Source: Phapecoctavirus 536P1. Taken from it: a stretch of DNA of 64,000 nucleotides. Below are positions 10,387 to 29,213 of this stretch, piece after piece. The translations under genes and the position numbers were made by a program. Numbering within the stretch: the first letter of the stretch is position 1; every line of letters starts with the position of its first letter. Under the pieces are notes generated by a model. That model did no database searches. It was not told where the DNA came from and saw nothing but the letters and a program-made list of their open reading frames with translations. The stretch lies in the sequence record OZ035728.1, one strand, 5' to 3'.

Positions 10387-13300
10387 CTAATGGCAACTGG
10401 CCCAGGAATTCCCTACATCATATCCAGCAGTAAGCTGAACATTAAGATTGTAAAATTCTCCAGCCTTAGTAACAGCTAAGGCAGCAAGTTCACCTGCCCG
10501 ACTATAGGCTGTAAACCATCCACCTTTGGGAGATTCATGAATGTTAGCCCAAATTTGCCCTGTCTCTTTTTCCTTATTATGCTTCCATTCTTCGACTTTA
10601 GCAAGGCATTCTTTATCAATTTTCTTTTGTTCTTCAGGATCGTCTACTTTCTTCCAACCTAATGATTCAGGTGAAAACCATTTAAATTCTACAAGGTTAC
10701 GAGAAACTTCAAGCTGGGCTTCATCGTGATATGCAATCATTTGTTGCACGAAATCTTTATTCTTCCAGTCATCTTTAAAGAAGTCAACACTTAGTCCTTC
10801 TTCTTCGATCATGTCGTCATAAATAACCATTGCACGTTTAGCACAGATAACCCCACCACTTTGGAACAGAGAGTTAAGAATCGCGTGAGCAGAACGAGTA
10901 GGAACCTTACGACCGTCAATACCCAAAACATATTGTTTACCAGTCTTAACCCAAAAGTCGTTTAAACGTTCTTTAAGACGCGCCAATGGGAATGCAGCTT
11001 CCCAGAAAGCATCAAACACCAATTGACCTGTAAACTTATCGCTACCAATTGTTTTAGCAACCTTGTCGGCTTGTGCACCATAGGTAATACCATACTTAAC
11101 AGATTTAGCAGGACTACGTTCAAATTTACGTCCAATAGTTTCAGTGATACGTTTTGCCATCATTGTGTGAACATCGTTAGGTTTCTCTAACAACAGAGCG
11201 TTACAATACTCGTGTGGCTCCGGCTCGTACCGCCAACAGTTTCCTGTGATGGTAATGCAGTCTTTCTGACGCATGACCCACGTACCAAGTTCTGTTTGTG
11301 GACACCAAACATCCTCTACACCCCACTCTTCAATAGTCAAACTTTGAACAGGAATGTGAGAGCGGTTAGTCAATGTTGCCACTTTTACTTTCTGCTCTTT
11401 TGTATTGAAAGCTACAGAGATATTGCCTCCATGCACCAGGTACGAGGCAGTTAAAGCTGCTTCAAAAAGTTCACCTGGGTTCTGCGCCCAACGCCAAACA
11501 GGTTTTTGTTTATGTTCATGCCAGTAACCATCTGCAATCAAGAAACCTTCCAAGAAAGCTACACGCTCGGCATGAGACATATTAACTACACGCTCTACCC
11601 ACGGAACATCCCATTTACCTTGTTGAACAGAAGTTAAACTATTTACCTGATCTTGTTCCATGTTAAATGGAGCATTACAAATAATATTATCTCCTGTGCA
11701 AAGCTCGGCAGTTGTTCTGACTTTAGGCACATAAGTATTCCCTTTACTACGGGTATTAACATACCAACGGTGATCTGCTGTTGCACGGTAAGTGTGTGAT
11801 TTCCCTTTAATCTCAAACGTCTTACTATTTTTATAGAAGACCTTACCTTTTACTTTAGTCCATTCTTTCATACCTGTTTCAGCATTGTACCCTAAAATCT
11901 CATCCCCTTCCTTCAGGTCGTGATATCCTACCCAACCTTTACGAGTCAAAGCTTGAGCATCCATCGGCACACAGTAATGCGACTCAATCTTTGCTTCCAA
12001 AGAGTCGAAGTCATAACCGATCTGGAAGTATTTAGGAACTTCTACACCAAACAAGTTACGCATCTCCCATCCAAACAAAGATGTGACACGAGGAATATTA
12101 GCTACAGATCTATGCTTCATACGAGAGGTTGCAGCATCACATGTAGCGGCTGGGGTAGGAATACGCCCATCAGCCCTTACTGCGGCTAAGAAACCTTTAT
12201 CGTATTCTTGATCTTCTTCATCTTCTTCCCAATCAGCACCGCCACCTAAAATAGAGTTCCTACGATGCTTATACGTTAAGTATTCTACAATCTGTGTAGC
12301 ATAAGGAAACTTCTCACCCAAAGCTTGCAGGTTAGGACAAATTTCTTTTTCCTGACCTTTGGTAAAACACGGGTTAGTCAATACTTTAAGACCGCGACCT
12401 TTACCTTTTGCTATACGCTCTTGAATCTTCCTTTCCAAGGTTTCCGGTGTGCACTCCAGATGATCACAACGATCCTGACAAAAATTAGAAGATAGAGTTT
12501 GCTCAACGTAAGCTCGAATACCTTTCTGAAGTTCTTCCTCGCTCTTTTTAATTTTGGTGCCAGATTTAAGCGTCAAGTCTTTATCTTTATATTCAGACGG
12601 TACCCAACCTAATCCTACAAGCCAGTTTTTAATATGGGTTGTATCGTTCAATGTTGCAGGGATATTAGGATCACATAGAGGCTCATCTGCTGCAACTGGC
12701 AGTTTCCACTCTTTCCCCAACATAACTAACCACCAATCGCCATCCCTCTCTTCCAAATGACCATCATGTTTCTTAGCAAAATTGATCATATGGTTAGTTG
12801 GCTCTAAGTTCTTTTTAATTTGCAACTTAGGTGGAATAAAAGCTTTAAGATAACCTTTTGTTGCTGGTTTAGGTGGCAAAATAGGCTCAACGAGTAAACG
12901 AAGACGCTCCATTTCTGCATCCAAAAAAGCAAGGTTCTCTTCTGCTTGTTTCATGTTAAAAGCAAACCCACGGTGTTCCTGGCGTGTAATAATGTCTGCT
13001 ACACGTTGTTCAAGTTCAAATGGACCTTCCCATTTATCATAATCACCCCATTCTTCCATAAGGTAATTATATACGCTCGTATTGGCTTTGTTGTCATAGA
13101 TACAGTAATAAAGCATATCCGCAGCAAAAGTCTTAAATCGATCTTCTTCTGGAATCTCTTTACGGAAATCTATTTTTACATCACCACCTGCTTTTCGAGA
13201 AAGTGCTGCCAAGCTATGTCCTGATTTGCCCTCAATCTTTCGATCTGGGTTTAACACTTTACTCAAAATCAAGGAGTCAATAAGTTTTACCTTATTTTTG

Positions 13301-13719
13301 CCCCACGTATTATATTTAACACTGTAATCTAATCCATAAAACAGTTTTGTAGCCAACCAGTCGTAGTTGATACCGTTGTGAGCCACAGCCATTTCAACCA
13401 GATATTCAGGCTTGTCTTTAAAATAACCTTCATGATTAATAAAATCTGGGAAATCTTTTAGTTGAAAATGTGTGTAATCTTGCGCCACATACTCTTTAAG
13501 AACATATGTGTATTTACCATCTGACTCTTCATAAGGACGCCCATCAAAGATGTATTTAGGGCCATCGTGGAAAGCTACTATTTCTCCTGTTTCATGGTTC
13601 TCTAAGACAATACAGTGCATTTGAAATGTGTCTTTGAGACGATAAGGACTAGCTAAATAATCAATAGTGTCATTATTCAACAATCCGTTTGCTTCAATAT
13701 CCCATGTAAACTTACTCAC
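10387..13719 (-). CDS. DNA polymerase, family A, with 3'-5' exonuclease domain, interrupted by an in-frame intein
   Basis: 1110 aa; exo motif WDIEANGL; pol motif A DFDSLEAKIESHY, motif B RSPAKSVKYGITYG, motif C YHDEAQLEV; GTG start with SD AGGAGG. Confidence 0.85.
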   Translation of the reverse strand: MSKFTWDIEANGLLNNDTIDYLASPYRLKDTFQMHCIVLENHETGEIVAFHDGPKYIFDGRPYEESDGKYTYVLKEYVAQDYTHFQLKDFPDFINHEGYFKDKPEYLVEMAVAHNGINYDWLATKLFYGLDYSVKYNTWGKNKVKLIDSLILSKVLNPDRKIEGKSGHSLAALSRKAGGDVKIDFRKEIPEEDRFKTFAADMLYYCIYDNKANTSVYNYLMEEWGDYDKWEGPFELEQRVADIITRQEHRGFAFNMKQAEENLAFLDAEMERLRLLVEPILPPKPATKGYLKAFIPPKLQIKKNLEPTNHMINFAKKHDGHLEERDGDWWLVMLGKEWKLPVAADEPLCDPNIPATLNDTTHIKNWLVGLGWVPSEYKDKDLTLKSGTKIKKSEEELQKGIRAYVEQTLSSNFCQDRCDHLECTPETLERKIQERIAKGKGRGLKVLTNPCFTKGQEKEICPNLQALGEKFPYATQIVEYLTYKHRRNSILGGGADWEEDEEDQEYDKGFLAAVRADGRIPTPAATCDAATSRMKHRSVANIPRVTSLFGWEMRNLFGVEVPKYFQIGYDFDSLEAKIESHYCVPMDAQALTRKGWVGYHDLKEGDEILGYNAETGMKEWTKVKGKVFYKNSKTFEIKGKSHTYRATADHRWYVNTRSKGNTYVPKVRTTAELCTGDNIICNAPFNMEQDQVNSLTSVQQGKWDVPWVERVVNMSHAERVAFLEGFLIADGYWHEHKQKPVWRWAQNPGELFEAALTASYLVHGGNISVAFNTKEQKVKVATLTNRSHIPVQSLTIEEWGVEDVWCPQTELGTWVMRQKDCITITGNCWRYEPEPHEYCNALLLEKPNDVHTMMAKRITETIGRKFERSPAKSVKYGITYGAQADKVAKTIGSDKFTGQLVFDAFWEAAFPLARLKERLNDFWVKTGKQYVLGIDGRKVPTRSAHAILNSLFQSGGVICAKRAMVIYDDMIEEEGLSVDFFKDDWKNKDFVQQMIAYHDEAQLEVSRNLVEFKWFSPESLGWKKVDDPEEQKKIDKECLAKVEEWKHNKEKETGQIWANIHESPKGGWFTAYSRAGELAALAVTKAGEFYNLNVQLTAGYDVGNSWASCH
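11239..11973 (-). mobile_element. intein with degenerate LAGLIDADG homing-endonuclease block inside DNA polymerase (residues about 583-827)
   Basis: 245-aa insertion directly after pol motif A; begins with Cys, ends ...ITITGN followed by Cys; internal block ERVAFLEGFLIADGY resembles LAGLIDADG; extein without insert about 865 aa. Confidence 0.6.
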
Positions 13720-14513
13720 TATTCCTCCTTTCTAATGTTCTCCAGAACCCACTGAAGTTCTTTTAAACTTAAACTTCTTACTCCCGCAGTTTTACTAGCT
13801 TCAGCTTTAAGTAACGGGTAAGCCTCAATGATACGCGTTTTAAGATCAGAAGTCAAGGCTTTTAAAAAATAGGTGGATGCTTCAGATAAAGAATCTTCTT
13901 CTGATAACACTTTACCTGCACTTGCTCCCGCTCTCCTAACGGCTATATCGTAGTCTTTACTGTTACCTAATACGAATAGTCGATTCTCTCCTAAAACAAC
14001 GGGAGAACGCTTCTCATTGCGTTTAATCCATATCTGGAATACACAAGGAACATCCCAAGGTTCTCCATGAAGAATAAAAGATCCTTTTGGACATTCTTCT
14101 TCGTAAAGAAGATGCATGTGGGGATTTAGTTTGTGTGCAAAAAAGATTTTTTGAAATGTGCGAGGCAAGATAAAACAAATACCACCTTCGTTATCCAACA
14201 TTTCAGCACAATGGTTAAAGAACTTAATGGCAAGACTAGCATTTTTTCCAAATGGAGGATTACCGACAAAAGCAGTTACACTACCAACAGACTCAACAGA
14301 TTGAGCTAAAAAATCTGCCTCAATACAATCTTCAAACTTAGGGTCAATATCAAAAGAAGTTATGTTTTTAAAACAAGAAGAGAAAGCTCCTTCTCCCGCA
14401 GATGGTTCTACGTAGTTAGCTTCCTCTCCAAAAATTTCTTTGATCTTATCACATAAGAACCCCGCATAAGCGGGGTTAGTGTAATATTGATCAAGTGTGT
14501 TCAACTTGCTCAA
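13719..14513 (-). CDS. DNA N6-adenine (or N4-cytosine) methyltransferase
   Basis: 264 aa; AdoMet motif EPSAGEGAF and catalytic VGNPPFG; TTG start with SD AAGGAGG. Confidence 0.7.
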   Translation of the reverse strand: MSKLNTLDQYYTNPAYAGFLCDKIKEIFGEEANYVEPSAGEGAFSSCFKNITSFDIDPKFEDCIEADFLAQSVESVGSVTAFVGNPPFGKNASLAIKFFNHCAEMLDNEGGICFILPRTFQKIFFAHKLNPHMHLLYEEECPKGSFILHGEPWDVPCVFQIWIKRNEKRSPVVLGENRLFVLGNSKDYDIAVRRAGASAGKVLSEEDSLSEASTYFLKALTSDLKTRIIEAYPLLKAEASKTAGVRSLSLKELQWVLENIRKEE

Positions 14514-14954: not shown

Positions 14955-15021
14955 TTTTACTTCTCCTCTTGTTTGGTTGATGAGACAAGTATAAGTCCCT
15001 TCCGCAAAGTTGTCAACAGGT

Positions 15022-15048
15022 ATTTTTAATAAAAGGGCCGAAGCCCTT
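15022..15048 (-). terminator. intrinsic terminator after primase-helicase
   Basis: minus-strand reads stop codon then GGGCTTCGGCCC hairpin followed by TTTTATTAAAAATA. Confidence 0.7.
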
Positions 15049-16825
15049 AATAGTTGCTATCCGTAGGCAAATTAGCAGGATTGTTGAAATACTGCTCTTT
15101 GTCATGCAGAGTTGCAGTTCTAATATCATAGTAAAACTGCCCTGCTGGACCAGTTTCCGAGAACTCACGGTTTTTTAGGATAAAGCAATGAGTCGTATTG
15201 CGTTCTACAGGGTCTTCAGCGGCTTTATCTCGTTCCAAAGCCAAGGTAATACCAGCACCTTTAGCCAAGAAACTACTACCCATTGCATCGTCCTCTGTTA
15301 AGTGTTCATTGCCACCATTAGCCGATTTCTTAACGTGTGAGATGACGATAATAGTTATAGCATACTCTTTCATAATGCGCTTCAACCATGTTGCTAACTC
15401 TTCTTGGGCTTGAACATCCATACCAGAAAGCAAATCAGAATAAGGGTCGATAACAAGAATTGTTACTCCAAAATAGATGATCATTTCCAAAACTTTTTCT
15501 TTAATAGACTCCACATCTGCTCCACGATCATCACATACATAAAAACGTGGTGATCCATCTTCTCTTTCGTAAAAATCTAGGATTTTTTCTTTATTCTCTT
15601 CCAAGATTTGAAATTTCTCTTCCGGTGTTTTCCTGTGTAGAGGAATATGCAGGAACGAGGACAACAGGTTACGAGAATATTTCTTATAAGTTGCTTCCAA
15701 GGACAGGATACCTAGGGTATGTTCTGGGTGCGCAACAATAATATGTTTGGTGATCTCGTTCACCATCAAAGTTTTACCGATACTGGTCTTTGCCAGGATG
15801 ACTGTAATCTCTTCCTCTACTAAACCACCACCCAGCATGTTTGCAGCTACACGCATAAAAGGAGGCAAGGTAATCATCTTGGATTCCAAGCATTCTAATG
15901 CAGCTTCATACAAGACATTAGAAGCATAAACACCTGCTGGGGTGTATAGACGAGCACTCCAAAAAGCTTTTACGAAATCTTTTGCACGACCTTCTTCCAG
16001 ATATTGATTGGCATCCTTAAGATCCATCTGCATACGGTAGACTTTGTTACGAGGCAGCACCTTAACAATATTTTCAAATGCCTCATTACCTGCTTTATCA
16101 TTATCCATGCAAACAATAATCTTCTTAAATTTTTCAAAGAAAGGATATTGTGCCTGAACTTGTTTATACATACTGGTTTCACCAGTTGTGCCACTAACTA
16201 CTGCTGGAAGTTCATATTTGTTGTCCAAGTTTTCAGACAGCATTTGATAAGCTGCCAGAGCATCGTGTTCACCACCTGTAATTACCACAGTATGAGAACG
16301 GTCTGCAAAACGAATTTGTCCAAAAAGATCTACATCTTTACCTACTTGACCAATAGGTTTACTGAAATCTTTAGGATGAATACGACGCTTAAAACCAACC
16401 AATTCTTTACCGATAGTAGTTGGATATAAACAACTTTCTACTACCATCTGATCCCCTTCCTGACGGTATTCATAACGAACACCATAGAAAGATGAAACTT
16501 TTTCTTTAATGCCTCGATAACCACGTGGGTTGGTTGATGTTTCTTGAACAATTTTACGATGAATCTGTTTATTAAATTCCGAACCCACAATCTCCTCCTC
16601 TTCTTCTAAAACTTCACCATTTTCTCGTAACCATTCTACACTAGGAATAGTATATTCACACGCAAAGCACTTAGCACCTTTATGCTCTCCATTAGAATCT
16701 AATCCATAAACCATCAGGTTATTACGAGAGCGATCCTTGCCATTTTTCATGCAGCGCGGACAACCTGTATGTCCTTCCTTGCTAAGATCAACATCAAATC
16801 CATATTTAGTTATAATGTGCGACAC
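15047..16825 (-). CDS. T7 gp4-like primase-helicase
   Basis: 592 aa; N-terminal Zn-finger (CPRC...CFAC), TOPRIM motif IIVCMDNDKAGNEA, helicase Walker A AKTSIGKT; GTG start with SD AGGAG. Confidence 0.85.
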   Translation of the reverse strand: MSHIITKYGFDVDLSKEGHTGCPRCMKNGKDRSRNNLMVYGLDSNGEHKGAKCFACEYTIPSVEWLRENGEVLEEEEEIVGSEFNKQIHRKIVQETSTNPRGYRGIKEKVSSFYGVRYEYRQEGDQMVVESCLYPTTIGKELVGFKRRIHPKDFSKPIGQVGKDVDLFGQIRFADRSHTVVITGGEHDALAAYQMLSENLDNKYELPAVVSGTTGETSMYKQVQAQYPFFEKFKKIIVCMDNDKAGNEAFENIVKVLPRNKVYRMQMDLKDANQYLEEGRAKDFVKAFWSARLYTPAGVYASNVLYEAALECLESKMITLPPFMRVAANMLGGGLVEEEITVILAKTSIGKTLMVNEITKHIIVAHPEHTLGILSLEATYKKYSRNLLSSFLHIPLHRKTPEEKFQILEENKEKILDFYEREDGSPRFYVCDDRGADVESIKEKVLEMIIYFGVTILVIDPYSDLLSGMDVQAQEELATWLKRIMKEYAITIIVISHVKKSANGGNEHLTEDDAMGSSFLAKGAGITLALERDKAAEDPVERNTTHCFILKNREFSETGPAGQFYYDIRTATLHDKEQYFNNPANLPTDSNY

Positions 16826-16837
16826 TTTGTTCTCCTG

Positions 16838-17116
16838 TTAAAATGGTTCGTTAGTCTCCATCATATATTCTGCTTCTAGTTCTTCCATGTGCTTTCTAAA
16901 TTGGAAAGCAATTTCTGCTACAGTTACATTTAAATCTTTTTCAAAAACTTCTGTAGATCCTTCATAAAAACGAATACCGTCAATTAAAAGCCCTCCGTGG
17001 TAATCCCAATCGCTTTCACGAGAAAGTGGATTAGGTTCTTCATAATAGTAATCCACCTCCACGACCAAGGCTTTCCCGTTACGAGTGGTGTATTCAAAAT
17101 CAAAAGTGTTAATCAT
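16838..17116 (-). CDS. hypothetical protein
   Basis: 92 aa; SD GAGGAG; stop overlaps next start. Confidence 0.55.
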   Translation of the reverse strand: MINTFDFEYTTRNGKALVVEVDYYYEEPNPLSRESDWDYHGGLLIDGIRFYEGSTEVFEKDLNVTVAEIAFQFRKHMEELEAEYMMETNEPF

Positions 17117-18060
17117 TATAGCTCCTCAAATAAAAGTCTACGACGCTCATTCAACACATCAATGTGATAATGAGTCCTGACATACTTAGCTAATGCTAAT
17201 CCTTTCTCCATGCAAACATCGGGAGCACTTAATAAGTATTCCGTAATATCTTTCCACTCGGAAGGTGTTTCAGCAAAGAATAACAAATCTTTAAACTCTT
17301 GTGTATGATAATTCTCACGAGGAGAGCAGATTAAAGGTAAACCCTTAGCACCTGCCTCAAGAATTTTAAGATTGCTTTTTGCATTATTAAACACGTTATC
17401 GATCAATGGTGCAAGACTGATTTGATGACCATCGTAAGATTCCATGTAGTTGGCATATGGTCTTACACCTTCATAAACACAAGTTGGTGCTACATTTTCT
17501 CTGATTAAAGACCATTCACGACTACTTAAAACTTCAGAATCCCTACGAAAACCACATATTGTAAGATCTTTACCAAAATCGGGTAAGATAGCCAAATCTT
17601 GTTTATGTGTTTCACTTCCAGCCCAGACTAATGGAGTTTTGGAGTAGCGATCACGGGTCAACACAAATTGACCTTCATCGTAAGGAAGTCCATTAGGGAT
17701 TATGTGCACATTATCATTGTATTGTGAAAGTTCAACTTGCAAGGCAGGTGTCGTAGTTGTAACAAGATCACTGTGCTCTAAAAACCATTTTAAATGTTCA
17801 CGAATACCTGATTCAAAAATACCTTCTAACATGTGTCCTTTTGGAATAACTAAAGAGTCATCCAAATCCATAACCATTTTAAAGCCTAGGTTTTTAAGGG
17901 CTAAAAAGCCCTCTTTACCTTTTGTTGGCACTCCGTTAAAAACGAAAACGTTGTGTTTAGGTTGTGAAGAGAACTGCCTTGAGTAAGGCAGCACTACCCT
18001 ATGGAAATCGCAGACACTATAATTGATTCCGTTACGATTGTCAAGAATTATTTGTCCCAT
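17116..18060 (-). CDS. glycosyltransferase-like protein (GT-B-type C-terminal motif), paralogue of 18068..19015
   Basis: 314 aa; conserved KSNLKILEAGAKGLPLICS and VWAG blocks shared with neighbouring paralogue. Confidence 0.5.
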   Translation of the reverse strand: MGQIILDNRNGINYSVCDFHRVVLPYSRQFSSQPKHNVFVFNGVPTKGKEGFLALKNLGFKMVMDLDDSLVIPKGHMLEGIFESGIREHLKWFLEHSDLVTTTTPALQVELSQYNDNVHIIPNGLPYDEGQFVLTRDRYSKTPLVWAGSETHKQDLAILPDFGKDLTICGFRRDSEVLSSREWSLIRENVAPTCVYEGVRPYANYMESYDGHQISLAPLIDNVFNNAKSNLKILEAGAKGLPLICSPRENYHTQEFKDLLFFAETPSEWKDITEYLLSAPDVCMEKGLALAKYVRTHYHIDVLNERRRLLFEEL

Positions 18061-18067
18061 ACTTCAC

Positions 18068-19015
18068 CTACAAACTTTCAATAACCTGGCGTCGCAATTC
18101 GTTTGCATCTGCCAGATTATAATGTGTTCGAACATGTTCCGCTAAGAACAAGCCGCGATCTTCCCGATAGTTCGGATTGCGAAGAAGCTTAACAATTTCG
18201 TAATGCCATTCTGCTTTATTCTCTGCATAAGCAACAGCGCGAGCATCTACAGGGTTAAAATAAGGTAATACCTTAGAACAAACAATCGGAATACCTTTTG
18301 CCCCAGCTTCAAGGATTTTGAGATTACTTTTACAATTATTAAAATCATTATCTACCAAAGGAGCTATAGCAATAGCATGACTTTCGTAAACACTCATGTA
18401 ATTATCTAAATCTTTTACAGCAGCTTTATATTTGGCGTTTGGTAAATTTCTACGGATCTTAATCCACTCTTGACCTGTGATACTCTGCGATGCTTCATAT
18501 CCTGCAATAGTAAGAAGTTCATCATCGAAAGTATTAGAGACTAGTCGTAAATCGGGTTCGTGACTAGCACCGCCAGCCCATACAACAGGGGTACCGGATG
18601 AACGATCATTTGACAAAGTGAATTGTCCGCTATCAAAAGGAAGTGCATTTCGGATCACAACAACATTTCTATTTAAATGACGGATTTTATATGCCAAATA
18701 TTCCGTAGTCACAATGACCACATCAGCAAGCTTAACCATAGCCACAATAGCGTGAGTGTTTGACTCATATAAACTTGCTAAATAATGTTCTGGATTAAGT
18801 TGGTAGAAATCATCTAAATCTACAACAATCTTAACACCTTGACGTTTCAGGGACAGAACATATTCTGCACCTTTAGAATGAATACGGTTAAACACGACAA
18901 CATCTTTCTTAGGCTGAAAATTATTGTTGTTAAATGGCATAACAATACGATGATAATCACAACCACTGTGAGGTTTTGCATCAATTTTCAGTTTAGTCCA
19001 TTTTTTATTTGACAT
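18068..19015 (-). CDS. glycosyltransferase-like protein, paralogue of 17116..18060
   Basis: start placed at internal ATG with SD GAGGAGG (track ORF extends to 19054); shares CDYHRIV, VWAG, KSNLKILEAGAKGIPIVCS, HVRTHY blocks with paralogue. Confidence 0.5.
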   Translation of the reverse strand: MSNKKWTKLKIDAKPHSGCDYHRIVMPFNNNNFQPKKDVVVFNRIHSKGAEYVLSLKRQGVKIVVDLDDFYQLNPEHYLASLYESNTHAIVAMVKLADVVIVTTEYLAYKIRHLNRNVVVIRNALPFDSGQFTLSNDRSSGTPVVWAGGASHEPDLRLVSNTFDDELLTIAGYEASQSITGQEWIKIRRNLPNAKYKAAVKDLDNYMSVYESHAIAIAPLVDNDFNNCKSNLKILEAGAKGIPIVCSKVLPYFNPVDARAVAYAENKAEWHYEIVKLLRNPNYREDRGLFLAEHVRTHYNLADANELRRQVIESL

Positions 19016-19688
19016 GTGCCAGTGCCTCCTCATAAGAAATTCGGATTTTCCCATTTTTAATATCTTCTAAAGACGCTTTATATTCTTCCCAGTTAATGCC
19101 AATAGCAGCTTCTTTCTCTTCTTTTGTCAGATTAGCAAAAGGCATAGGATTGTTTCCAAAAACATCGTCTGGGTGGATATAAGCCATGATACGAAGTGGA
19201 CAAGGTATTGCCTGAATACCCTGATTCAAACCAGCAGCTTTCAAACGGTGTACCCATTCAGCATCTTCAAAACCATAGCCGTGAGTGTAAGGGCGGAAAT
19301 AACCCATCTTCTCAACAACGGCACGAGAATACATTGCAAATTGACACATTGCAAGTTCCCAGAGAATAACTTCTCCTTTACTCCCAACAACTTTATCTTT
19401 GAAATACTCCGGCATACCAAAGAAATCCCATCCTCCAGAGACAGCTTGATCTACAAAATATGTTTCCCATCCCTCCATGATTGGGTAGCAATCGTCGTCA
19501 AAAATAAACCAATAATCATAACCTTCTTCATAAAACTGGTGCATAAGTTCATTCCTGGCGTAAGCTACACCTTTACGATCTGGATCGTTGAATACTCGAA
19601 AATCTGCACGTGGATCTGTTACAAGGTAATCTTTAAGTGGACGGACACCTACAGTGATAACACCAACTCCGATTTTAATATTTTCCAT
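19005..19688 (-). CDS. glycosyltransferase (GT-A-like, DxD-type)
   Basis: 227 aa; acidic DDD in WFIFDDDCYP; SD AGGAGAG. Confidence 0.45.
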   Translation of the reverse strand: MENIKIGVGVITVGVRPLKDYLVTDPRADFRVFNDPDRKGVAYARNELMHQFYEEGYDYWFIFDDDCYPIMEGWETYFVDQAVSGGWDFFGMPEYFKDKVVGSKGEVILWELAMCQFAMYSRAVVEKMGYFRPYTHGYGFEDAEWVHRLKAAGLNQGIQAIPCPLRIMAYIHPDDVFGNNPMPFANLTKEEKEAAIGINWEEYKASLEDIKNGKIRISYEEALAHVK

Positions 19689-19696
19689 TTTCTCTC

Positions 19697-20260
19697 CTAA
19701 ATAGTTTTACTGTGATCATGACAGTGTAATAAATGATGTATAGACCGTTGAGGATTTGTTTGACCTAATCTGTAAATGTGAAACAGATACATTCCCCGCA
19801 TCAATCCTAACCTCTTTCCTTTTTCATGTAAAGTGCGAGAGAAAATTAAGTCGAATTGGATAGATTTTTCTTCGAAAGGAATTTCATTCCACAATGATTT
19901 TCTAAAAAGCAAAAAGAAACCTGCCAGAGGTATTCCGAAAGGAACTTCTTCAACACTCACTTTATGATGTTCTCTTGCAACCTTAGCATATTCTATATGA
20001 TTTAGAATATCTGGGTCATCGTTAATTTGGTTAGAGAAAAGCTGATAACCACTACCTAACCTGTTACAAGTTGCACCTATTACATCAAAAGGTGGGTTTG
20101 ACATAACAAGTTCTTCAAGCATAGATGGTTGATCAGGCAGAAGGAACATTGTATCGGTATCTCTTAAACACACCCAACTATCATCTGGAAGAACGGCAAT
20201 AGCTTCATTGATAGCCTTGCCGATATTTCCTGTCAGATAGGGAGTAATATAATAAATCAT
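19697..20260 (-). CDS. glycosyltransferase-like protein (GT-A-like)
   Basis: 187 aa; CLRDTDTMF DxD-like motif; SD GGAGGGGGA. Confidence 0.4.
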   Translation of the reverse strand: MIYYITPYLTGNIGKAINEAIAVLPDDSWVCLRDTDTMFLLPDQPSMLEELVMSNPPFDVIGATCNRLGSGYQLFSNQINDDPDILNHIEYAKVAREHHKVSVEEVPFGIPLAGFFLLFRKSLWNEIPFEEKSIQFDLIFSRTLHEKGKRLGLMRGMYLFHIYRLGQTNPQRSIHHLLHCHDHSKTI

Positions 20261-20277
20261 TCTCCCCCTCCGTCATA

Positions 20278-20469
20278 TTAGCTGTCGGCTACAATTCCAC
20301 GTTTAATCATTTCTTGTTGGATCTGAATGACACGATCTCGTGCTTCCATATATTCTTTAAAAGATTCTTGGAGATGGTCACGAGCTACATCTCGTAGTTT
20401 AATCAGTTTGTCGTTTGTCACTTCTTGAAGAGAGATTTCGCCAGTTTCATTGGTCCCAAGCGTTTTCAT
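20278..20469 (-). CDS. hypothetical small protein
   Basis: 63 aa ORF in operon. Confidence 0.45.
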   Translation of the reverse strand: MKTLGTNETGEISLQEVTNDKLIKLRDVARDHLQESFKEYMEARDRVIQIQQEMIKRGIVADS

Positions 20470-20677
20470 TTACAACCTCCTTAATAGCTACTGCACAGTT
20501 CTTACAGATACATTGACCTTTGTTCTTAGAAATTTCAATGTAAGGTTCATTTTCGTTTTCCCCGCGTCGTGAGTCGTATATTACCGTATTGAAGCAGACA
20601 ACGCAAATGTTTTTAATAACGACATATTTTTGCACTTTTTGTTTAGTGCGAAAATTAACTTCAATGATTTCTCCCAT
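20447..20677 (-). CDS. hypothetical small Cys-rich protein
   Basis: start at internal ATG overlapping upstream stop; contains CVVCF...CICKNC. Confidence 0.45.
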   Translation of the reverse strand: MGEIIEVNFRTKQKVQKYVVIKNICVVCFNTVIYDSRRGENENEPYIEISKNKGQCICKNCAVAIKEVVNENAWDQ

Positions 20678-20961
20678 CAGTGAATCTCCCCTAAAATGTT
20701 GTTTTGAGACATTACTGCGGAGCATTCTACAGCATCATGAGTTCTTGCAAAACGCTCCCACAACACAGCATCTACTTTAAGAACCATACAAGGATAAATA
20801 CTATCGTTGATCATATCAATACTATATTTATCTACATCTTTTTCATCTTCCATAAACAAAGTAGCGTATGCTTCCAAATGCTTACGGGTGTAGTATACGT
20901 CCTCTTCGGTAAGACCAACAACCAGGTAACTTGCTACAACAACAGTATTATCTTCTTGCAT
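20677..20961 (-). CDS. hypothetical protein
   Basis: 94 aa from internal ATG with SD AGGGGAG. Confidence 0.5.
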   Translation of the reverse strand: MQEDNTVVVASYLVVGLTEEDVYYTRKHLEAYATLFMEDEKDVDKYSIDMINDSIYPCMVLKVDAVLWERFARTHDAVECSAVMSQNNILGEIH

Positions 20962-20962
20962 T

Positions 20963-21484
20963 TTAACTCCCCTTTGGTAGATAGAAACCATGCACTTTAT
21001 CTCGGTAAACAAGACGCATATCACGTTCCCAGTGTGTCCTTATATTCCGTTTCTTGAAGTATAGAGCACCTTTAGTAACATCTAAAACAGACCGCAATTC
21101 AGGAAAATGTTTCTCTAAATAAAGTAAACGTTCCGCTATTGCTTTTGCTTCCTGCCACTTATCTTTCTCTGTCACGTTAAAAGTTTTCGCATATGAAAAT
21201 TGCCCTTTCTGGAGCAAGACTCCCCTGACTGTGTTAGGGAAGTAGGCATCATTTCTTCTGTTGATTACCACATTCCCAACGGCATTCATTCCTTTTTTAC
21301 CCAGACCGCGACCTTCTGCGTAAATTGCACAAGCTAATAGAATTTTATCATTATATTGCTTTGTACATTTGTGAACTACTTTAGCGGTTTTTACGTTTGC
21401 AGCTTCGGCTTTCGCCACAACAGGTGTAAATGTAAAAGCAGTTAAGGATAGTAACGCAACTGTTACAAAGTTTTTTATCAGCAA
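20963..21484 (-). CDS. secreted cell-wall hydrolase (SleB/Hydrolase_2-like), possible lysis enzyme
   Basis: 173 aa; N-terminal signal-like hydrophobic segment ending AKAEA; TTG start with SD AGGAGG. Confidence 0.45.
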   Translation of the reverse strand: MLIKNFVTVALLSLTAFTFTPVVAKAEAANVKTAKVVHKCTKQYNDKILLACAIYAEGRGLGKKGMNAVGNVVINRRNDAYFPNTVRGVLLQKGQFSYAKTFNVTEKDKWQEAKAIAERLLYLEKHFPELRSVLDVTKGALYFKKRNIRTHWERDMRLVYRDKVHGFYLPKGS

Positions 21485-21583: not shown

Positions 21584-22186
21584 TTATGGACATTCATACC
21601 ATTCTTTTTTACCACCGAAGGCCATCACCACATCACAAATATCCAGACCAGCTTTACCTACACCATATGCTTTCAGCTTCCATTCCCCATCTTCACGAAC
21701 CAAGGAAGCCACGTGGCAGATTGTGTTGCCAGCTACTTCAGGAGCCAGGAAGTCAAAATCCAGAATTTCCACATTACGCTCGGAGTCGAAGATTTTAAGC
21801 ATACCTTCAGAAGCATGACCGAAACGTTTCAGACCTGTATCATCATCAATAGTCAGAACAAAGGCAATCTCTTGTGCATCAGGAGAGATTTTAGCCAGAG
21901 TAATATCAATCTGCTCCATGCTGCCAGTTCCATCACGAACATCGTCACCAGCGAAGGTAGAACGTTCAGGATCAAACTTGTTAGCATAGCAAACCAGATG
22001 ACGTGCAGACAGCATTTCAGGATTGCCAGCGGCATTGTGACGACAAACCAGTGCACTTACATCCAGATCCAGTTTAGAATCAGATTTCCAAGAGAACTCC
22101 AGGCGTAGTTCTTTCAGAGCCGGAGCAACTTTCTTCAGGGAAATTTTTTCGCTAGAGCCTTTTTTCAGGGAAATTTTATCAGTCAT
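21584..22186 (-). CDS. terD: TerD-family protein
   Basis: 200 aa; N-terminal ISLKKG...ISLKK repeat, DLDVSAL, GDDVRDGTG, EWKLKAYGVGKAGL blocks match E. coli TerD layout. Confidence 0.8.
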   Translation of the reverse strand: MTDKISLKKGSSEKISLKKVAPALKELRLEFSWKSDSKLDLDVSALVCRHNAAGNPEMLSARHLVCYANKFDPERSTFAGDDVRDGTGSMEQIDITLAKISPDAQEIAFVLTIDDDTGLKRFGHASEGMLKIFDSERNVEILDFDFLAPEVAGNTICHVASLVREDGEWKLKAYGVGKAGLDICDVVMAFGGKKEWYECP

Positions 22187-22201
22187 CTTTTGTCTCCTCT
22201 A

Positions 22202-22471
22202 TTATTTAAGTGTAATACCAGTTACAGTCAATTCTACTTCCAAAAGCTTAGATGTGTTTTGGATTGATACTAATTGTGCATGATGGTTTAGTTCTACAGC
22301 AGAATAATCATTTTCCCCATCATCTACTTTTAAATAAACAATGATTTCACTAAGGTCTAAACCATTTTCGTCAAATGCATTTTCATAGACGAAAGTATCT
22401 CCTACATCCAAATCTTTAATGGTAAGGCATCGTTTATTTACTTTTTGCTCATCAATTTCGAAGTTTAACAC
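22202..22471 (-). CDS. hypothetical protein, paralogue of 23493..23771
   Basis: 89 aa; GTG start with SD AGGAGG; shares DVGDTF and VTGITLK-type blocks with paralogue. Confidence 0.5.
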   Translation of the reverse strand: MLNFEIDEQKVNKRCLTIKDLDVGDTFVYENAFDENGLDLSEIIVYLKVDDGENDYSAVELNHHAQLVSIQNTSKLLEVELTVTGITLK

Positions 22472-22700
22472 TTCTTCCTCCTAATATTATCTCCGGTTTA
22501 TATATACGAAGAATTATAGCATTTTCATTTTCTTTGTCAACCCATTCTTCATAATCAGGCCATACATGAATCTCTACTCTACTTACAATATCTTCCATTC
22601 GCACAGTCCCAATGAAATACTCTTTGAGACTGCACATAATGAAAGCTTCTCTCTCGCGCCAATAATTTTCTATGACTTGAGAGGCAAGCTCGTCGATCAT
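22452..22700 (-). CDS. hypothetical protein
   Basis: 82 aa; start overlaps stop of vWA gene (ATGA). Confidence 0.45.
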   Translation of the reverse strand: MIDELASQVIENYWREREAFIMCSLKEYFIGTVRMEDIVSRVEIHVWPDYEEWVDKENENAIILRIYKPEIILGGRSVKLRN

Positions 22701-23491
22701 TTTTTAGCACCTACTTTAACAACCCACTCTCCGAACTCTTCAGATAAGAGTTTGTCATAAAGCTCTGAATCTGTCAAGTCTAAATCTTTAATGCCAATAA
22801 AACCAACATTATCATAAGCATTTGCCAGTTCTTTCAGGAAGCCAAACTTCTCATTACCAACGCCAACCATGAACCAATAAATAGGTTTATTCTTATTCTC
22901 TTCAATAAGACGACGAACAGCACTAGGATCACCATTCTCACCATCCGTCTGGAAGAATACAACACCAGGGGTAACGTCAGCACCTGGTTCAGACACAGCT
23001 ACAACCTTTTCACGCTCTACAGATACTGTTTCAGTTTTACCAAGCAGACGATTAAAGAAGCCTTTCTTTGGAGCCTCTTCTTGTACCACTTGTTTAGTGG
23101 TAATATATTTGGTAACAGTGCCAAAATACTCATCGTAGATATCTGCCATTACAGGGGCGTAATTTGTTCCACCTCCGATACGAACATTACGCATACATTT
23201 ACCAACATAGTCATCGTAAACGTCTGCTGTTGCTGGAGTAAGCTCTTGGGAACTCGTATTGAAGGCCCACATATCAATTTGTTGATTATCGTCGAACAGC
23301 ATACCAAAAGGAAGCAGTTTACCTACAAAATCACTCACTACCCCACTAGAATATAGACCATGCATACTACCAGAAATATCTAGAGCACATGCTACACGAA
23401 GAACAATCTTACCTTCATTCAGGTTCTTATTCTTTTTCAGAGAGAAAGCAAGGTTTTCTTGACGTTTTTTCAGGCTGATTTTATCGGACAT
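22697..23491 (-). CDS. von Willebrand factor A domain protein (TerY-like)
   Basis: 264 aa; MIDAS motif DISGSM; N-terminus SDKISLKK echoes TerD N-terminus; SD AGAAGGAG. Confidence 0.7.
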   Translation of the reverse strand: MSDKISLKKRQENLAFSLKKNKNLNEGKIVLRVACALDISGSMHGLYSSGVVSDFVGKLLPFGMLFDDNQQIDMWAFNTSSQELTPATADVYDDYVGKCMRNVRIGGGTNYAPVMADIYDEYFGTVTKYITTKQVVQEEAPKKGFFNRLLGKTETVSVEREKVVAVSEPGADVTPGVVFFQTDGENGDPSAVRRLIEENKNKPIYWFMVGVGNEKFGFLKELANAYDNVGFIGIKDLDLTDSELYDKLLSEEFGEWVVKVGAKK

Positions 23492-23492
23492 A

Positions 23493-23771
23493 TTATTTCT
23501 CCTTCTTAAGTGTAATGTTGGTAACTTCTAAATCTACTTCCACCACGTTTGTATCTGGTGCGATACAATGTGTATAACCTCGTTGTGCCATTCCCCCATT
23601 CATGCAGATTGCGCTATTTAGGGAACTTTTAATGAATACTAAATGAACGTAAGGGTCCAATCCTGCGTCTTGATAGGCAGCATAATACATAAATGTGTCC
23701 CCTACATCAAGATATTCAAAAGGAACAAATAAATCTTGACACTTTTCTTCTTGAATATTGAATCTAAACAC
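23493..23771 (-). CDS. hypothetical protein, paralogue of 22202..22471
   Basis: GTG start with SD GAGGAGG chosen (track ORF extends to 23837). Confidence 0.45.
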   Translation of the reverse strand: MFRFNIQEEKCQDLFVPFEYLDVGDTFMYYAAYQDAGLDPYVHLVFIKSSLNSAICMNGGMAQRGYTHCIAPDTNVVEVDLEVTNITLKKEK

Positions 23772-24327
23772 GCATACCTCCTCTACCAATTTTGAAGCCC
23801 AAATCGTAAGCTTCCTTAGTGATCTTTTGTAACTCACTTATAGGAAGTGTTACAAGAGGATCATCTTCTTCAATTTCCATCTTGTCATCTTCTGTTTCAA
23901 TGAGAGTATTATGCACTTTGTGATAAGGGTTGTCAACACGTTTAAACTTATTCTTTTCTGTGCTGAAAAAACAATCTGGATCTTCTTCACCATCACCCCA
24001 ACCTTGGTTAGGATCTCCGTCAGATTGTTCTGTAGGGATTTCACCTGTAAAGTACTCTTCCAGCACCATAGCGATACCGTCCCTTGGATTTGAGGAATGC
24101 ATCAAATCACAAACCTTACCCCAATCCATAGCCCATTCGAACCGTTCACGAACGCCATTTTCATCCTCTTTTCCAGAGAAAACACAACCATAACTATCAT
24201 AGTTGCCATACATCTCTTCAATAACAACACCGTCTTTCAAAAGAAAGAGGTAGCAAGGTGATCCGTCGAAAGAAGTAGAAAGGGCAGCTTTGCCCGATTC
24301 TTTGCACAAAAAACTAAAACAACCCAT
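23764..24327 (-). CDS. hypothetical acidic protein
   Basis: 187 aa; SD AGGAGGG. Confidence 0.55.
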   Translation of the reverse strand: MGCFSFLCKESGKAALSTSFDGSPCYLFLLKDGVVIEEMYGNYDSYGCVFSGKEDENGVRERFEWAMDWGKVCDLMHSSNPRDGIAMVLEEYFTGEIPTEQSDGDPNQGWGDGEEDPDCFFSTEKNKFKRVDNPYHKVHNTLIETEDDKMEIEEDDPLVTLPISELQKITKEAYDLGFKIGRGGMRV

Positions 24328-24530
24328 TACAAACCCTCCTTCAGATTATCAAGAGCTACAGTGGTTTCACAAAATTCTCCATAAGCTTTATGATGTTCCA
24401 GAAAAGCTTCGGGTCCACCCCAGTCATTATCTTGTGTATTCCAACCATCAATAAAAGCATCTTCAATGATTGTGATCAGTTCTTGTCGGGTTAACTGGAT
24501 AATATTAGGATCGTTATCGTAGTTAAACAT
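24327..24530 (-). CDS. hypothetical small protein
   Basis: 67 aa; SD GAGGAGG. Confidence 0.5.
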   Translation of the reverse strand: MFNYDNDPNIIQLTRQELITIIEDAFIDGWNTQDNDWGGPEAFLEHHKAYGEFCETTVALDNLKEGL

Positions 24531-24696
24531 CTTCTTCCTCCTCTAAAATATGAAACCCGTAATTACAATAGTCCTGAAAGGTTTCGTGCGCAAGATCTTC
24601 TATATCCTCTTGAGACATATCATCTTCAATTTCGATATCCACAACCTCATTGCATCCACACCAAGCAGTTTCAATATTCACTCGTAATATTTTCAT
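24526..24696 (-). CDS. hypothetical small Cys-containing protein (56 aa)
   Basis: SD GAGGAGG; start overlaps upstream stop and stop overlaps downstream start. Confidence 0.4.
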
Positions 24697-24890
24697 TACT
24701 CCTCCTCATTGAAGTCAATATCTGCAAGGAGTTGGAATTTACGGAAGTTACGACAACCTTCATAAATATAACAATCACGACAAACTGCTAGAACACTTGG
24801 GGGATATATGCCTCCCATCGGTGCGAATCGTTTTTCGTCATCATAACGGACACCAATGTCTTCATCAATTATATAGATACGGATTCTCAT
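24696..24890 (-). CDS. hypothetical small protein
   Basis: 64 aa; start overlaps stop of TelA-like gene. Confidence 0.45.
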   Translation of the reverse strand: MRIRIYIIDEDIGVRYDDEKRFAPMGGIYPPSVLAVCRDCYIYEGCRNFRKFQLLADIDFNEEE

Positions 24891-25999
24891 TTACCAAGCC
24901 CTCGTTTCACAGCAGCTACCATCCCGTCTTCCAGAGATTGAACTTCATTAATATAATCAACACGAGCAGCACGGGCTTCCGTATTGATGCGGTTAGTTTC
25001 TTCTAACATCTTAACCAAGTTTTCCTGATCGTGACGCAGAGTTTCAATATCGAGCACTTGACGGTTAGCCAGGGCTGCTGCTTCGATCTGATTCTGTGTG
25101 GCAAGATCGCTACCCAGTTTAATTGCCAGGTTAAATTCATCAAGAACGTTATTCTGCGTCTCTGCTGCTTTCATTTGACGTAAGCTCTCGATATACATTG
25201 AGAAGTTAGCAGAGTAAGCAGGAATAACATTATTTACTATGTTACGCGCAGATCGCATTAAGCTTGCAGAAACTTTTTGCATACCTTGTACACGCGGTCC
25301 CATTTGGACACACAGTAGGCGCAATGCCTTTAAATCTGCAATACGAATCTCCAGAAGATCCAAAGTGTCTCGGATCACTTGTCGCTGTTCTACTGCATCT
25401 TCTGGAAGAGCAGCCAAAGCTTGTTCTTCTTTTTCATAGGTTGCTGTTAGAAGCTGCATATCTCGGTTCAAACTTGCAGCATATTGTCCAATAGCTTGAT
25501 GTAGTTTTTCAAGATATACCAAGGAATCTTCTTCTTTGCGAATATCCGTTTGAAGGTTCTTTACCAACTCTTCAATACGGTTATTAACATTATCAAACTC
25601 CCCAAACAGGTCTTCTTTCATACCCATAACTTTTTTAATGAGTTTAGTAATACCTTTGCTTTGTTTAATAGAGTTTGGATCAAGTTGTTTTGCCTGTTTA
25701 ATCAAAGCTGTGAGTCGTTCACTCATCTGATCGCCTTGATTACTACGTTGATGTTTTAATACCTCGGCATTCAAGGAACGCAAGGTTGTTCCTGCCTCTG
25801 CCCCAATCTCTTCGATCTCTTGTCGGGTCATAGAAGGTAAAACTGGAACTTCTTGCGGTGCTGCTGGTGCATAAACAGGACTGGCATCTAACACGCTTGG
25901 AGCGAATACAGATTTACTTGCATCTGTTGTTGCAGCAAATACGCTCATTTCAGGCTTCTTCTGACCACCAGTAGCTGCTTTTAAAAATGGACTTGTCAT
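24887..25999 (-). CDS. TelA-like (toxic anion resistance family) coiled-coil protein, tentative
   Basis: 370 aa, long heptad-like helical segments; size and context beside TerD/vWA/TerC; assignment by context, not by a clear motif. Confidence 0.4.
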   Translation of the reverse strand: MTSPFLKAATGGQKKPEMSVFAATTDASKSVFAPSVLDASPVYAPAAPQEVPVLPSMTRQEIEEIGAEAGTTLRSLNAEVLKHQRSNQGDQMSERLTALIKQAKQLDPNSIKQSKGITKLIKKVMGMKEDLFGEFDNVNNRIEELVKNLQTDIRKEEDSLVYLEKLHQAIGQYAASLNRDMQLLTATYEKEEQALAALPEDAVEQRQVIRDTLDLLEIRIADLKALRLLCVQMGPRVQGMQKVSASLMRSARNIVNNVIPAYSANFSMYIESLRQMKAAETQNNVLDEFNLAIKLGSDLATQNQIEAAALANRQVLDIETLRHDQENLVKMLEETNRINTEARAARVDYINEVQSLEDGMVAAVKRGLGK

Positions 26000-26586
26000 T
26001 CTTCATTCTCCTCTTCTGCATCTCTTATATATGGTGAAACACCGTACTCTTTAGCTACTTTAACCCAATCATCCCATTTATACAACCATAATTTTCCTTC
26101 AGTTCCTTCTTTATCTGATTTCAACCACATATTAGGTTGCTTACCTGGGTACATGCGATTAGGTTTACGATTATAACCTCTAACACATCTTGTCGCAAAC
26201 CTATCTACCAGAACAAGAACATATTTATACTCGTGGTTCAACGGCTCTTTGGAAGTGGCTTTAGGATTAGCCCCTAACTCTGCTGCCAGTTTTTGCCAAT
26301 GAGCACCGTGCCTACTAAACTTACCCATACAACCATCAATAGCATGAGCAATTTCGTGCTTCATTGTATCCACGATCATATCTCTTGTAGAGTTCTTATG
26401 CAAGTGCCAATTTACAACAACAATTTTATCTCGGTAGTTGCACCAACCGAAAGAGTTATTAACTTTGTTTCTAACACAAGCTTTATATCCTGCTTCACGT
26501 AACATGTTGTAGTAAACAGGAAAATCTTCTTTTATTTCCTGCATCACTTCCCACCACAAGAGTTGCAAGTCTCTCTCGGTATACAT
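25996..26586 (-). CDS. SprT-like zinc metallopeptidase domain protein
   Basis: 196 aa; HEIAH...HGAHW (HExxH plus third His). Confidence 0.5.
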   Translation of the reverse strand: MYTERDLQLLWWEVMQEIKEDFPVYYNMLREAGYKACVRNKVNNSFGWCNYRDKIVVVNWHLHKNSTRDMIVDTMKHEIAHAIDGCMGKFSRHGAHWQKLAAELGANPKATSKEPLNHEYKYVLVLVDRFATRCVRGYNRKPNRMYPGKQPNMWLKSDKEGTEGKLWLYKWDDWVKVAKEYGVSPYIRDAEEENEE

Positions 26587-26589
26587 AAC

Positions 26590-27183: not shown

Positions 27184-27197
27184 TGTTTTTCTCCTTA

Positions 27198-27635: not shown

Positions 27636-27818
27636 ATTTGCTTTCCTCGTTTTGGCTATTAATACATCTGTGTTTGAAATCTCCAGAGAAGCAATAAAGT
27701 TGCTCTCCATCTCGGTATAAACTCACTTTACTGCCGTTGATTACGCTTGTCAATACAAAAATTACAACAAACAACCCTATTGCAAAACAAATATTTTCAA
27801 ACACAACCAACAAGTATT

Positions 27819-28169: not shown

Positions 28170-28211
28170 AAGTCTCTCCTATAAAATAGCCTCCCGAAGG
28201 AGGCTCATCTA

Positions 28212-29186: not shown

Positions 29187-29213
29187 TCTTTTCTCCTCTC
29201 TTTGCGGGGAACT

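Follow-up and report, generated by a model that had tools for sequence, protein, structure and literature searches.

The closest described systems to the locus treated here are viral sets of soluble glycosyltransferases (GTs) that decorate the virion. In the mycobacteriophages Che8, Corndog and Myrna, GT operons, with an O-methyltransferase, glycosylate capsid and tail-tube proteins, and in the chlorovirus PBCV-1 (through enzymes such as A064R) and in mimivirus, viral rhamnose synthesis and several GTs together glycosylate capsid and fibril proteins. We analyzed a 64,000-nucleotide stretch of DNA from Phapecoctavirus 536P1 (record OZ035728.1; hereafter the window), in which four consecutive, close-packed minus-strand open reading frames (ORFs) at 17116-20260, here called GT1 to GT4 (Table 1), encode two predicted GT-B and two GT-A enzymes. 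These genes are real, strongly conserved glycosyltransferases. We infer that they probably build, by sequential action and with a rhamnose donor, a rhamnose-containing sugar chain, for which proteins of the virion are our tentative choice of acceptor. Throughout, GT1 to GT4 denote the genes of this block and their products; enzyme families that bear the same names are written as family GT2 and family GT4.

Like the virion-glycosylating sets, the block consists of several viral soluble GT-A and GT-B enzymes, and like the giant viruses, which pair such enzymes with their own synthesis of a rhamnose nucleotide sugar, these phages combine four GTs with a complete RmlABCD set that scores above equivalog cutoffs. 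The GT-GT-methyltransferase design of PBCV-1 A064R is mirrored by GT4 relatives in which a second GT and Methyltransf_24 form part of the same protein. The likeness is nevertheless one of shared fold, with no detectable sequence relationship; the host here is Gram-negative, and the donor in the giant viruses is UDP-rhamnose, whereas here it would be dTDP-rhamnose, as made by Rml enzymes in bacteria.

Phage DNA hypermodification systems (the T-even alpha- and beta-glucosyltransferases and the GT clusters associated with methyltransferase/5mYOX or ThyS genes) resemble the block in grouping GT-A with GT-B enzymes, often near replication or packaging genes, in the DDD and ED motifs of their GT-A members, and in having TarP and BshA as shared structural neighbors. 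They differ from it in that no partner making 5-hydroxymethylcytosine (5hmC) or 5-hydroxymethyluracil (5hmU) was found here, the match to the TAGT family is sub-threshold and local, and the DNA is sensitive to cutting in vitro and to restriction in vivo. TarP of Staphylococcus aureus prophages and RmlT of Listeria, the latter encoded with rmlACBD, are single enzymes acting on Gram-positive teichoic acid, whereas the present cassette comprises three or four enzymes in phages of enterobacteria, at late-gene positions. Finally, the spore-crust system of Bacillus subtilis comprises CgeB and SpsA-L, with SpsI-L homologous to RmlABCD; it is cellular rather than viral, and the likeness is confined to the level of family and fold, with no evidence of direct descent.

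The window derives from a phAPEC8-like Escherichia coli myovirus of the genus Phapecoctavirus, subfamily Stephanstirmvirinae. Positions 16800-20500 are 99.0% identical to phage ukendt and 98.8% identical to ESCO5, and this region is covered by 70 phage records; in ESCO5, the window corresponds to the interval from ~90.9 kb, past the end of the record, to ~1.6 kb. All four genes are named 'glycosyltransferase' in the RefSeq records of ESCO5, ukendt, ZCKP1 and others, and in the BASEL annotation of the phi92-like phage PaulScherrer the orthologues appear as 'putative glycosyltransferase' (two genes) and 'putative disaccharide synthase' (two genes). The four proteins all match glycosyltransferase-annotated PHROG families (E = 1e-79 to 1e-149), the outcome of a hidden Markov model classification proposed as a check by an earlier, sequence-only reading of this DNA; NCBIfam has a model for none of them. 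Compared with the phi92-like orthologues, the genes show a proportion of nonsynonymous differences (pN) of 0.16-0.25 and of synonymous differences (pS) of 0.68-0.82, with dN/dS ~0.10 where computable, the same value as for the adjacent primase-helicase. The ORFs, the PHROG families, the motifs and this selection bear out the original call of four consecutive glycosyltransferase-like genes, and its division of the block into two GT-B-like paralogues and two GT-A-like DxD proteins was correct in its gene calls and in the folds it predicted.

The genes are separated by gaps of 7-8 nucleotides or overlap slightly, and no terminator-like sites lie between them; the scan gave 40 promoter-like sites versus 34.8 +/- 6.5 in shuffled sequence, and 6 terminators versus 7.4. 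The true start of GT2 is very probably at 19015, as the ATG at this position is preceded by GAGGAGG and coincides with the RefSeq start. On the upstream side of GT4 lie small ORFs (three coding sequences in RefSeq), followed by a SleB-type endolysin gene. At the other end of the block, an ORF of 92 residues overlaps GT1 by 1 nucleotide and ends 12 nucleotides before the primase-helicase gene.

GT1 and GT2 are paralogues with 41% identity, and both belong to PHROG 7162 (E = 2.9e-145 and 3.2e-149, respectively). In Pfam, GT1 matches Glyco_trans_1_2 (PF13524) with 25.2 bits (cutoff 25), and a weak match to Glyco_transf_4 on its N-terminal half is the sole support for an N-terminal GT-B domain. 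The matches of GT2 to Glyco_trans_1_4 (E = 1.4e-4) and to Glyco_trans_1_2 (E = 4.6e-4), with scores of 20.6 and 22.6 bits, both fall just under the cutoffs; a precomputed PF13524 match is present in many homologues of the pair. Searching PDB sequences with GT1 alone returned nothing meaningful. A profile of the 29-sequence family, searched against the PDB, retrieved the family GT4 enzymes TreT (E = 6e-4), PglA, BshA and sucrose-phosphate synthase, the alignments lying mostly in the C-terminal half. Every residue that is invariant in the alignment of these 29 sequences is kept in GT1 and GT2, so neither copy looks degenerate. The families of the T4 alpha- and beta-glucosyltransferases (AGT and BGT) gave no Pfam match to either protein at E up to 1, and none appeared in PDB sequence or profile searches.

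GT3 and GT4 are unrelated to each other, and their predicted structures confirm both as GT-A enzymes. Each is modeled as a one-domain alpha/beta/alpha structure of Rossmann type that can be superposed on GT-A enzymes of known structure. GT-A (family GT2-like) enzymes are recognized by a conserved DxD motif for metal and nucleotide-sugar binding, located after a beta-strand, and, in the inverting type, by an acidic catalytic base; in agreement with this, the residues listed in Table 1 are invariant across 14 family members for GT3 and across 24 for GT4. Deoxyhexose transferases are among the top structural matches (WrtF, RmlT and MtdL for GT3; WrtF and RmlT for GT4), and the matches of the two proteins also include A064R, mimivirus R699 and R655, and STIV A197. 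Single-sequence searches of PDB sequences with GT3 and GT4 gave nothing meaningful, and a profile match of GT3 to Vps33A in the PDB was dismissed as spurious. The domain family of GT4 is large, with 976 representatives at 50% clustering, and its domain often forms the C-terminal half of proteins that also contain a TOD1/MUCI70-like GT domain, family GT2 domains or Methyltransf_24.

Homologues of the block are few in a set of 5.8 billion proteins, and they are phage-borne. Phapecoctavirus, the phi92-like Justusliebigvirus and metagenomic relatives (~60-75% identity) share the order Ter cluster, SleB, small ORFs, GT4-GT3-GT2-GT1, small ORF and primase. More distant contigs (~50% identity) have GT4-GT3, one GT-B gene, the small ORF and the primase, the GT-B protein being 49-53% identical to GT2 and ~37% identical to GT1. 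A prophage of Serratia sp. M24T3 encodes GT4-GT3-GT-B in the same order (41%, 37% and 39-51% identity) between the holin/endolysin/spanin genes and the series HNH-TerS-TerL-capsid-portal. In a lambdoid phage, a GT3-like gene and a GT-B gene (37% and 46% identity) occupy the region between the Q antiterminator/HicAB region and the holin-lysozyme genes; the Q-to-holin interval of lambdoid phages is a classic site of late cargo such as stx. A P22/Sf6-like contig carries a GT-B gene and GT3 between TerL and portal, and the head-morphogenesis module of Cellulophaga siphoviruses includes a gene for a GT4-like domain fused to a TOD1-like GT, with a Methyltransf_24 gene as its neighbor.

In all its occurrences the cassette pairs GT3 with a GT-B gene, and GT4 is an optional third member. 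As judged from these comparisons, a core of GT3 and GT-B, often with GT4, is a mobile cassette moving between unrelated phages, and its GT-B gene was duplicated within the ~150-kb myovirus lineage, the only one in which GT1 is found. The GT-B proteins of single-GT-B cassettes are 46-53% identical to GT2 and 37-40% identical to GT1; the first range applies to the Serratia prophage, to the lambdoid phage and to metagenomic contigs, and in the P22-like contig (L012) the identity to GT2 is 40%. Because the lone GT-B genes are nearer to GT2 than to GT1, sequence comparison identifies GT2 as the ancestral cassette copy and GT1 as a derived, diverged duplicate. The position of the block beside replication genes is incidental, since elsewhere the neighbors of the cassette are late genes for lysis, packaging or the head; the placement inside the replication module, noted in the sequence-only reading, says nothing about function, because the same cassette is found among late genes in three unrelated temperate-type phages.

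Outside the window, ESCO5 (record L004, 30493-33771) carries a complete rmlD-rmlC-rmlA-rmlB operon among nrdAB, glutaredoxin and thyX-like genes. The scores of the four products, in this order, all exceed the NCBIfam equivalog cutoffs (238.9/224, 225.3/156, 459.5/361 and 428/365), and in the whole-genome annotation of ESCO5 the genes of the block are the sole annotated glycosyltransferases. At an identity of at least 60%, RmlC is found in 131 phage records and GT4 in 131, with an identical organism breakdown. From this co-occurrence it is reasonable to suppose that the block consumes dTDP-rhamnose. The complete dTDP-rhamnose pathway of both genera has been described before and called 'peculiar', with the proposal that it serves rhamnosylation of hydroxymethylated nucleotides (Olsen et al. 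2020, PMC7552041). The ESCO5 'thymidylate synthase' (332 residues) that adjoins the rml operon has a weak match to ThyX and is followed by an NT5C-like deoxynucleotidase.

We propose that GT1 to GT4 are soluble cytoplasmic enzymes that would act in sequence to build a short oligosaccharide. As there are three enzyme types, one of them duplicated, the product would probably contain three or four linkages (a tri- or tetrasaccharide) and be made stoichiometrically. The rmlABCD genes of the phage itself imply that at least one of the sugars is probably L-rhamnose, with dTDP-L-rhamnose as donor, and the inverting, family GT2-like GT-A enzymes GT3 and GT4 would be the likeliest users of dTDP-beta-L-rhamnose, that is, putative rhamnosyltransferases. 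The sequence-only reading left the substrate open, a statement that has held up. It is in our estimation quite probable that the acceptor is a non-DNA glycoconjugate of some kind. The leading candidate would be one or more abundant virion proteins, yielding a coat of glycans comparable to that of mycobacteriophages, chloroviruses and mimivirus; for this specific assignment we claim only tentative confidence, somewhat short of an even chance. Virion proteins are favored because of the late-gene positions of the cassette, the GT-GT-methyltransferase fusions, the head-module site in Cellulophaga phages, and the precedents of PBCV-1, mimivirus and the mycobacteriophages, and late co-expression with virion genes in several phage lineages would fit a virion component as the target.

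Several observations weigh against this proposal. A cassette that hops among phages with unrelated capsids suits an acceptor available in every infection (DNA or a molecule of the host, for instance) better than a specific phage protein, and the block in the window is co-oriented and tightly packed with early/middle replication genes, not with late genes. The late-module position found elsewhere does not discriminate by itself, because GT clusters that modify DNA also adjoin terminase and structural genes (Pyle et al., bioRxiv 10.1101/2023.12.21.572611). The GT-B fold assigned to GT1 and GT2 is based on sequence profiles. The link between the rml operon and the block is a co-occurrence in one lineage, which could simply have inherited both as part of its core genome, and no rml genes are present in the flanking sequences analyzed around the cassettes of temperate phages (Serratia, P22-like and lambdoid). 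Searches of the literature on phi92/phAPEC8-type phages, rhamnose and virion glycosylation found no report of a virion glycan; as regards a demonstrated function of the block, they yielded only the suggestion of Olsen et al. (2020), a remark by Maffei et al. (2021) and a HincII restriction fragment length polymorphism (RFLP) survey, both considered below.

Among the alternatives, modification of the host envelope survives best, and we regard it as possible but rather unlikely; host surface structures had been the second suggestion of the sequence-only reading. The soluble GTs would in this case work at the inner membrane face and add rhamnose-containing residues to a lipid-linked or lipid A-core acceptor, candidates being undecaprenyl-pyrophosphoryl-N-acetylglucosamine (Und-PP-GlcNAc), the core of lipopolysaccharide (LPS) and precursors of enterobacterial common antigen (ECA), with phage exclusion or less sticking of progeny to debris as the outcome. 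Many structural neighbors of the block enzymes act on lipid-linked or cell-wall polymers (TarP, TarS, RmlT, PglA, AvpGT, GlfT2 and WrtF), and TarP, which prophages encode, already shows a soluble GT-A enzyme of phage origin remodeling a wall polymer. The envelope is, moreover, a universal acceptor, which suits a cassette hopping among enterobacterial phages; these phages use the LPS core or surface glycans as receptors (PMC8594841), and it is the two GT-B proteins that Maffei et al. label 'putative disaccharide synthase'. The block, however, encodes no membrane anchor, flippase, ligase or Gtr-type partner, and GT1 to GT4 have no transmembrane or hydrophobic segment (maximum Kyte-Doolittle 19-residue score 1.65), unlike what is expected of Gtr-type (GtrABC) seroconversion, in which a bactoprenol GT embedded in the membrane, a flippase and a serotype-specific GT work together. 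In the temperate phages, the cassettes occupy the late Q-dependent or packaging region, away from immunity and integration genes; enzymes expressed from there would be made minutes before lysis, so that new LPS could not replace the LPS already at the surface. Eight genes would also be a large investment.

A soluble acceptor other than a virion protein, which we think unlikely, could be a host protein modified during takeover, a small molecule, for example the predicted nucleoside-like metabolite of the Ter/phosphoribosyltransferase (PRTase)/HAD gene set, or a free oligosaccharide or glycolipid. The TerD, vWA-TerF, TelA, TerC, PRTase and HAD cluster lies a few kb from the block, and in contig L010 a HAD and PRTase_3 gene pair is located directly upstream of the GT genes, at a distance of 1.1 kb. 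GT-A toxins and EarP demonstrate that bacterial proteins can be glycosylated, by EarP with rhamnose. Against such an acceptor, the Serratia, lambdoid and P22-like cassettes occur without Ter or PRTase genes, and the combination of three or four GTs with their own sugar-nucleotide pathway points to an oligosaccharide made in bulk, not to regulatory mono-glycosylation.

DNA, at least in bulk, is probably not the acceptor, and DNA modification is the least supported of the readings considered. We give a slight chance to a scheme, in line with the suggestion of Olsen et al., in which a modified base of the phage DNA would receive sugars containing rhamnose and nucleases would thereby be evaded; the sequence-only reading had suggested glycosylation of DNA bases as an anti-restriction measure. 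DNA is a universal acceptor, and the block forms one tight gene string with the primase-helicase and DNA polymerase genes. GT3 has weak matches to TAGT (PF20691; 19.3 bits against a gathering cutoff of 27.5) and to PHROG 842 (beta-glucosyl-HMC-alpha-glucosyltransferase; E = 7e-6), and its DDD and ED residues resemble the R...DDD...EDY/F motif of DNA-modifying GT-A enzymes. Both matches, however, are sub-threshold and local, covering ~38 residues around the DDD at the nucleotide-sugar site (residues 32-68 only for TAGT), and in a BFVD structure search a TAGT-domain protein appears at rank 26 (E = 1.3e-5), behind generic family GT2-like and giant-virus GTs. Further points against DNA are that three of the four proteins are acidic (isoelectric points (pI) of 5.7, 8.5, 4.9 and 6.0 for GT1 to GT4) and that lambdoid and P22-like phages replicate from host deoxynucleoside triphosphate pools.

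Phage GT clusters that modify DNA can add mono- to trisaccharides and can adjoin terminase genes, but known phage DNA glycosylation needs 5hmC or 5hmU, supplied by a ThyA-type hydroxymethylase or by a methyltransferase with 5mYOX/TET, and the ~65% of GT contigs without such partners are less likely DNA modifiers (Pyle et al., bioRxiv 10.1101/2023.12.21.572611). ESCO5 encodes a divergent ThyX-like protein (31.6 bits against a cutoff of 87.9), which could be counted in favor of base modification, but its genome annotation contains no ThyA-type hydroxymethylase, 5mYOX/TET/JBP dioxygenase or C5-methyltransferase, and a Pfam scan of 20 more of its proteins, which included every annotated 'DNA methyltransferase' and left out some hypotheticals, found no TET, C5-methyltransferase or ThyA. 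Restriction sensitivity, which had been put forward as a check, also argues against bulk modification: by HincII RFLP, 39 of the 42 phages of the ESCO collection were cut, ESCO5-type Phapecoctaviruses included, and only ESCO10, ESCO47 and ESCO58 resisted (PMC10269720). The orthologous block is present in the phi92-like phages Bas60-62, and in vivo these phages are 'exceptionally susceptible' to six restriction systems of types I, II and III 'despite a putative dTDP glycosylation machinery' (Maffei 2021, PMC8594841). A sparse or site-specific rhamnose-containing glycan on the DNA, on a DNA end or on a packaged component, made without a hydroxymethyl-pyrimidine precursor, would escape both HincII and the six restriction systems and could serve packaging, ejection or evasion of non-restriction defenses, but we consider it highly improbable.

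That the four genes are glycosyltransferases is already part of their annotation, and the sugar genes of these phages and their rhamnose link have been discussed in two papers (Olsen 2020, Maffei 2021). New here are the modular mobile cassette, its association with late genes elsewhere, the confirmation of GT3 and GT4 as GT-A enzymes from their structures and the collected evidence against DNA. Phages of the phAPEC8 and phi92 types are often isolated and are used in therapeutic cocktails, and they give over ~7 kb (four glycosyltransferases and rmlABCD) to making a sugar structure. If the target is indeed the virion, these would be, to our knowledge, the first phages of Gram-negative bacteria with a glycan coat. 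Recognition by antibodies, clearance, binding to mucus and the stability of therapeutic phages would all be affected, and a small mobile cassette would be able to equip unrelated phages with such a coat. With the host envelope or DNA as the target instead, the block would represent a new exclusion or anti-defense mechanism.

Table 1. Coordinates of the glycosyltransferase block and of other features in the window
Feature	Coordinates	Strand	Description
GT1	17116-18060	-	GT-B-type glycosyltransferase, 314 aa
GT2	18068-19015	-	GT-B-type glycosyltransferase, 315 aa; longest ORF 18068-19054
GT3	19005-19688	-	GT-A glycosyltransferase, 227 aa; invariant D64-D65-D66 and E141-D142
GT4	19697-20260	-	Small GT-A glycosyltransferase, 187 aa; invariant D34-x-D36
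DNA polymerase	10387-13719	-	Family A, 1110 aa
Adenine methyltransferase	13719-14513		Dam-like, GNPPFG motif
Sigma-70-like site	14988-15016	-	11/12 consensus match, between primase and next ORF
Primase-helicase	15047-16825		
92-aa ORF	16838-17116	-	Very acidic, pI 4.2
Sigma-70-like site	18016-18044	-	11/12 consensus match, just inside the 5' end of GT1
Small ORFs	20278-21024		Three coding sequences in RefSeq
Endolysin	20963-21484		SleB type
TerD	21584-22186	-	
vWA-TerF-like	22697-23491	-	
TelA	24887-25999	-	
SprT-like protease	25996-26586	-	Followed by TerC, phosphatase, PRTase and HAD hydrolase

The 92-residue ORF next to GT1 has no Pfam match. It is conserved (35-67% identity, N-terminal half) wherever the primase-helicase follows (contigs L007-L010 and L016). 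A role for it in the cassette, as carrier or acceptor protein, was considered but rejected, since it is conserved only beside the primase and the cassettes of the Serratia, lambdoid and P22-like phages lack it; it is probably, to judge from this pattern of conservation, a primase or replication accessory protein rather than a part of the sugar system. A functional link between the block and the adenine methyltransferase gene was likewise discarded, as this gene is missing at that position in the phi92-like phages and in contig L007, in which the block is kept. Either of the two sigma-70-like sites in Table 1 may be a chance match, because the number of promoter-like sites in the scan does not exceed that in shuffled sequence.

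Other phages may carry glycan cassettes of a different make-up. In the metagenomic phage contig L013 (7227-10733), a GT-B homologue (33% identity), a family GT2 enzyme, a GT of the GT_PLOD type, the family of the collagen glycosyltransferases, and a DegT/DnrJ/EryC1 sugar aminotransferase are encoded directly after TerS; this array is another phage glycan cassette, with amino-sugar synthesis.

Several labels in the public records are without Pfam backing. Genes annotated as 'DNA methyltransferase' in RefSeq fall into this category at three ESCO5 loci (13543-14022 of record L005; 19479-20162 and 26573-27082 of record L004) and in the window (13719-14513). One ESCO5 gene so labeled, located between the portal and scaffold genes, gave a match (E = 1.4e-11) to the XkdF-like prohead protease family; two other such ESCO5 genes and the Dam-like gene of the window have no Pfam match at E up to 0.01. 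Host names also call for caution: the records 'Campylobacter phage B15/A150/A145/C3/A110a', 'Acinetobacter phage vB_AbaM_ABPW7' and 'Klebsiella phage ZCKP1' match E. coli Phapecoctavirus/Justusliebigvirus genomes at 98-99% identity in this region, and their host labels look doubtful, perhaps reflecting contamination or propagation artefacts.

The family A DNA polymerase is longer than its orthologue in contig L007 (760 residues), and the extra segment starts with Cys and ends in TGN before a further Cys, in the manner of an intein; 'intein-containing DNA polymerase precursor' is the annotation given to the phi92-like orthologue. Beyond the endolysin gene, the minus strand of ~21584-30000 holds a full Ter-type stress gene set, in a lytic phage, that is syntenic across relatives. 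The sign of the GC skew changes at ~6000 and ~44000, being negative from 6 to 44 kb and positive elsewhere, and these switches coincide with switches of the coding strand between plus-strand structural and other genes and the long minus-strand block of replication and metabolism genes.

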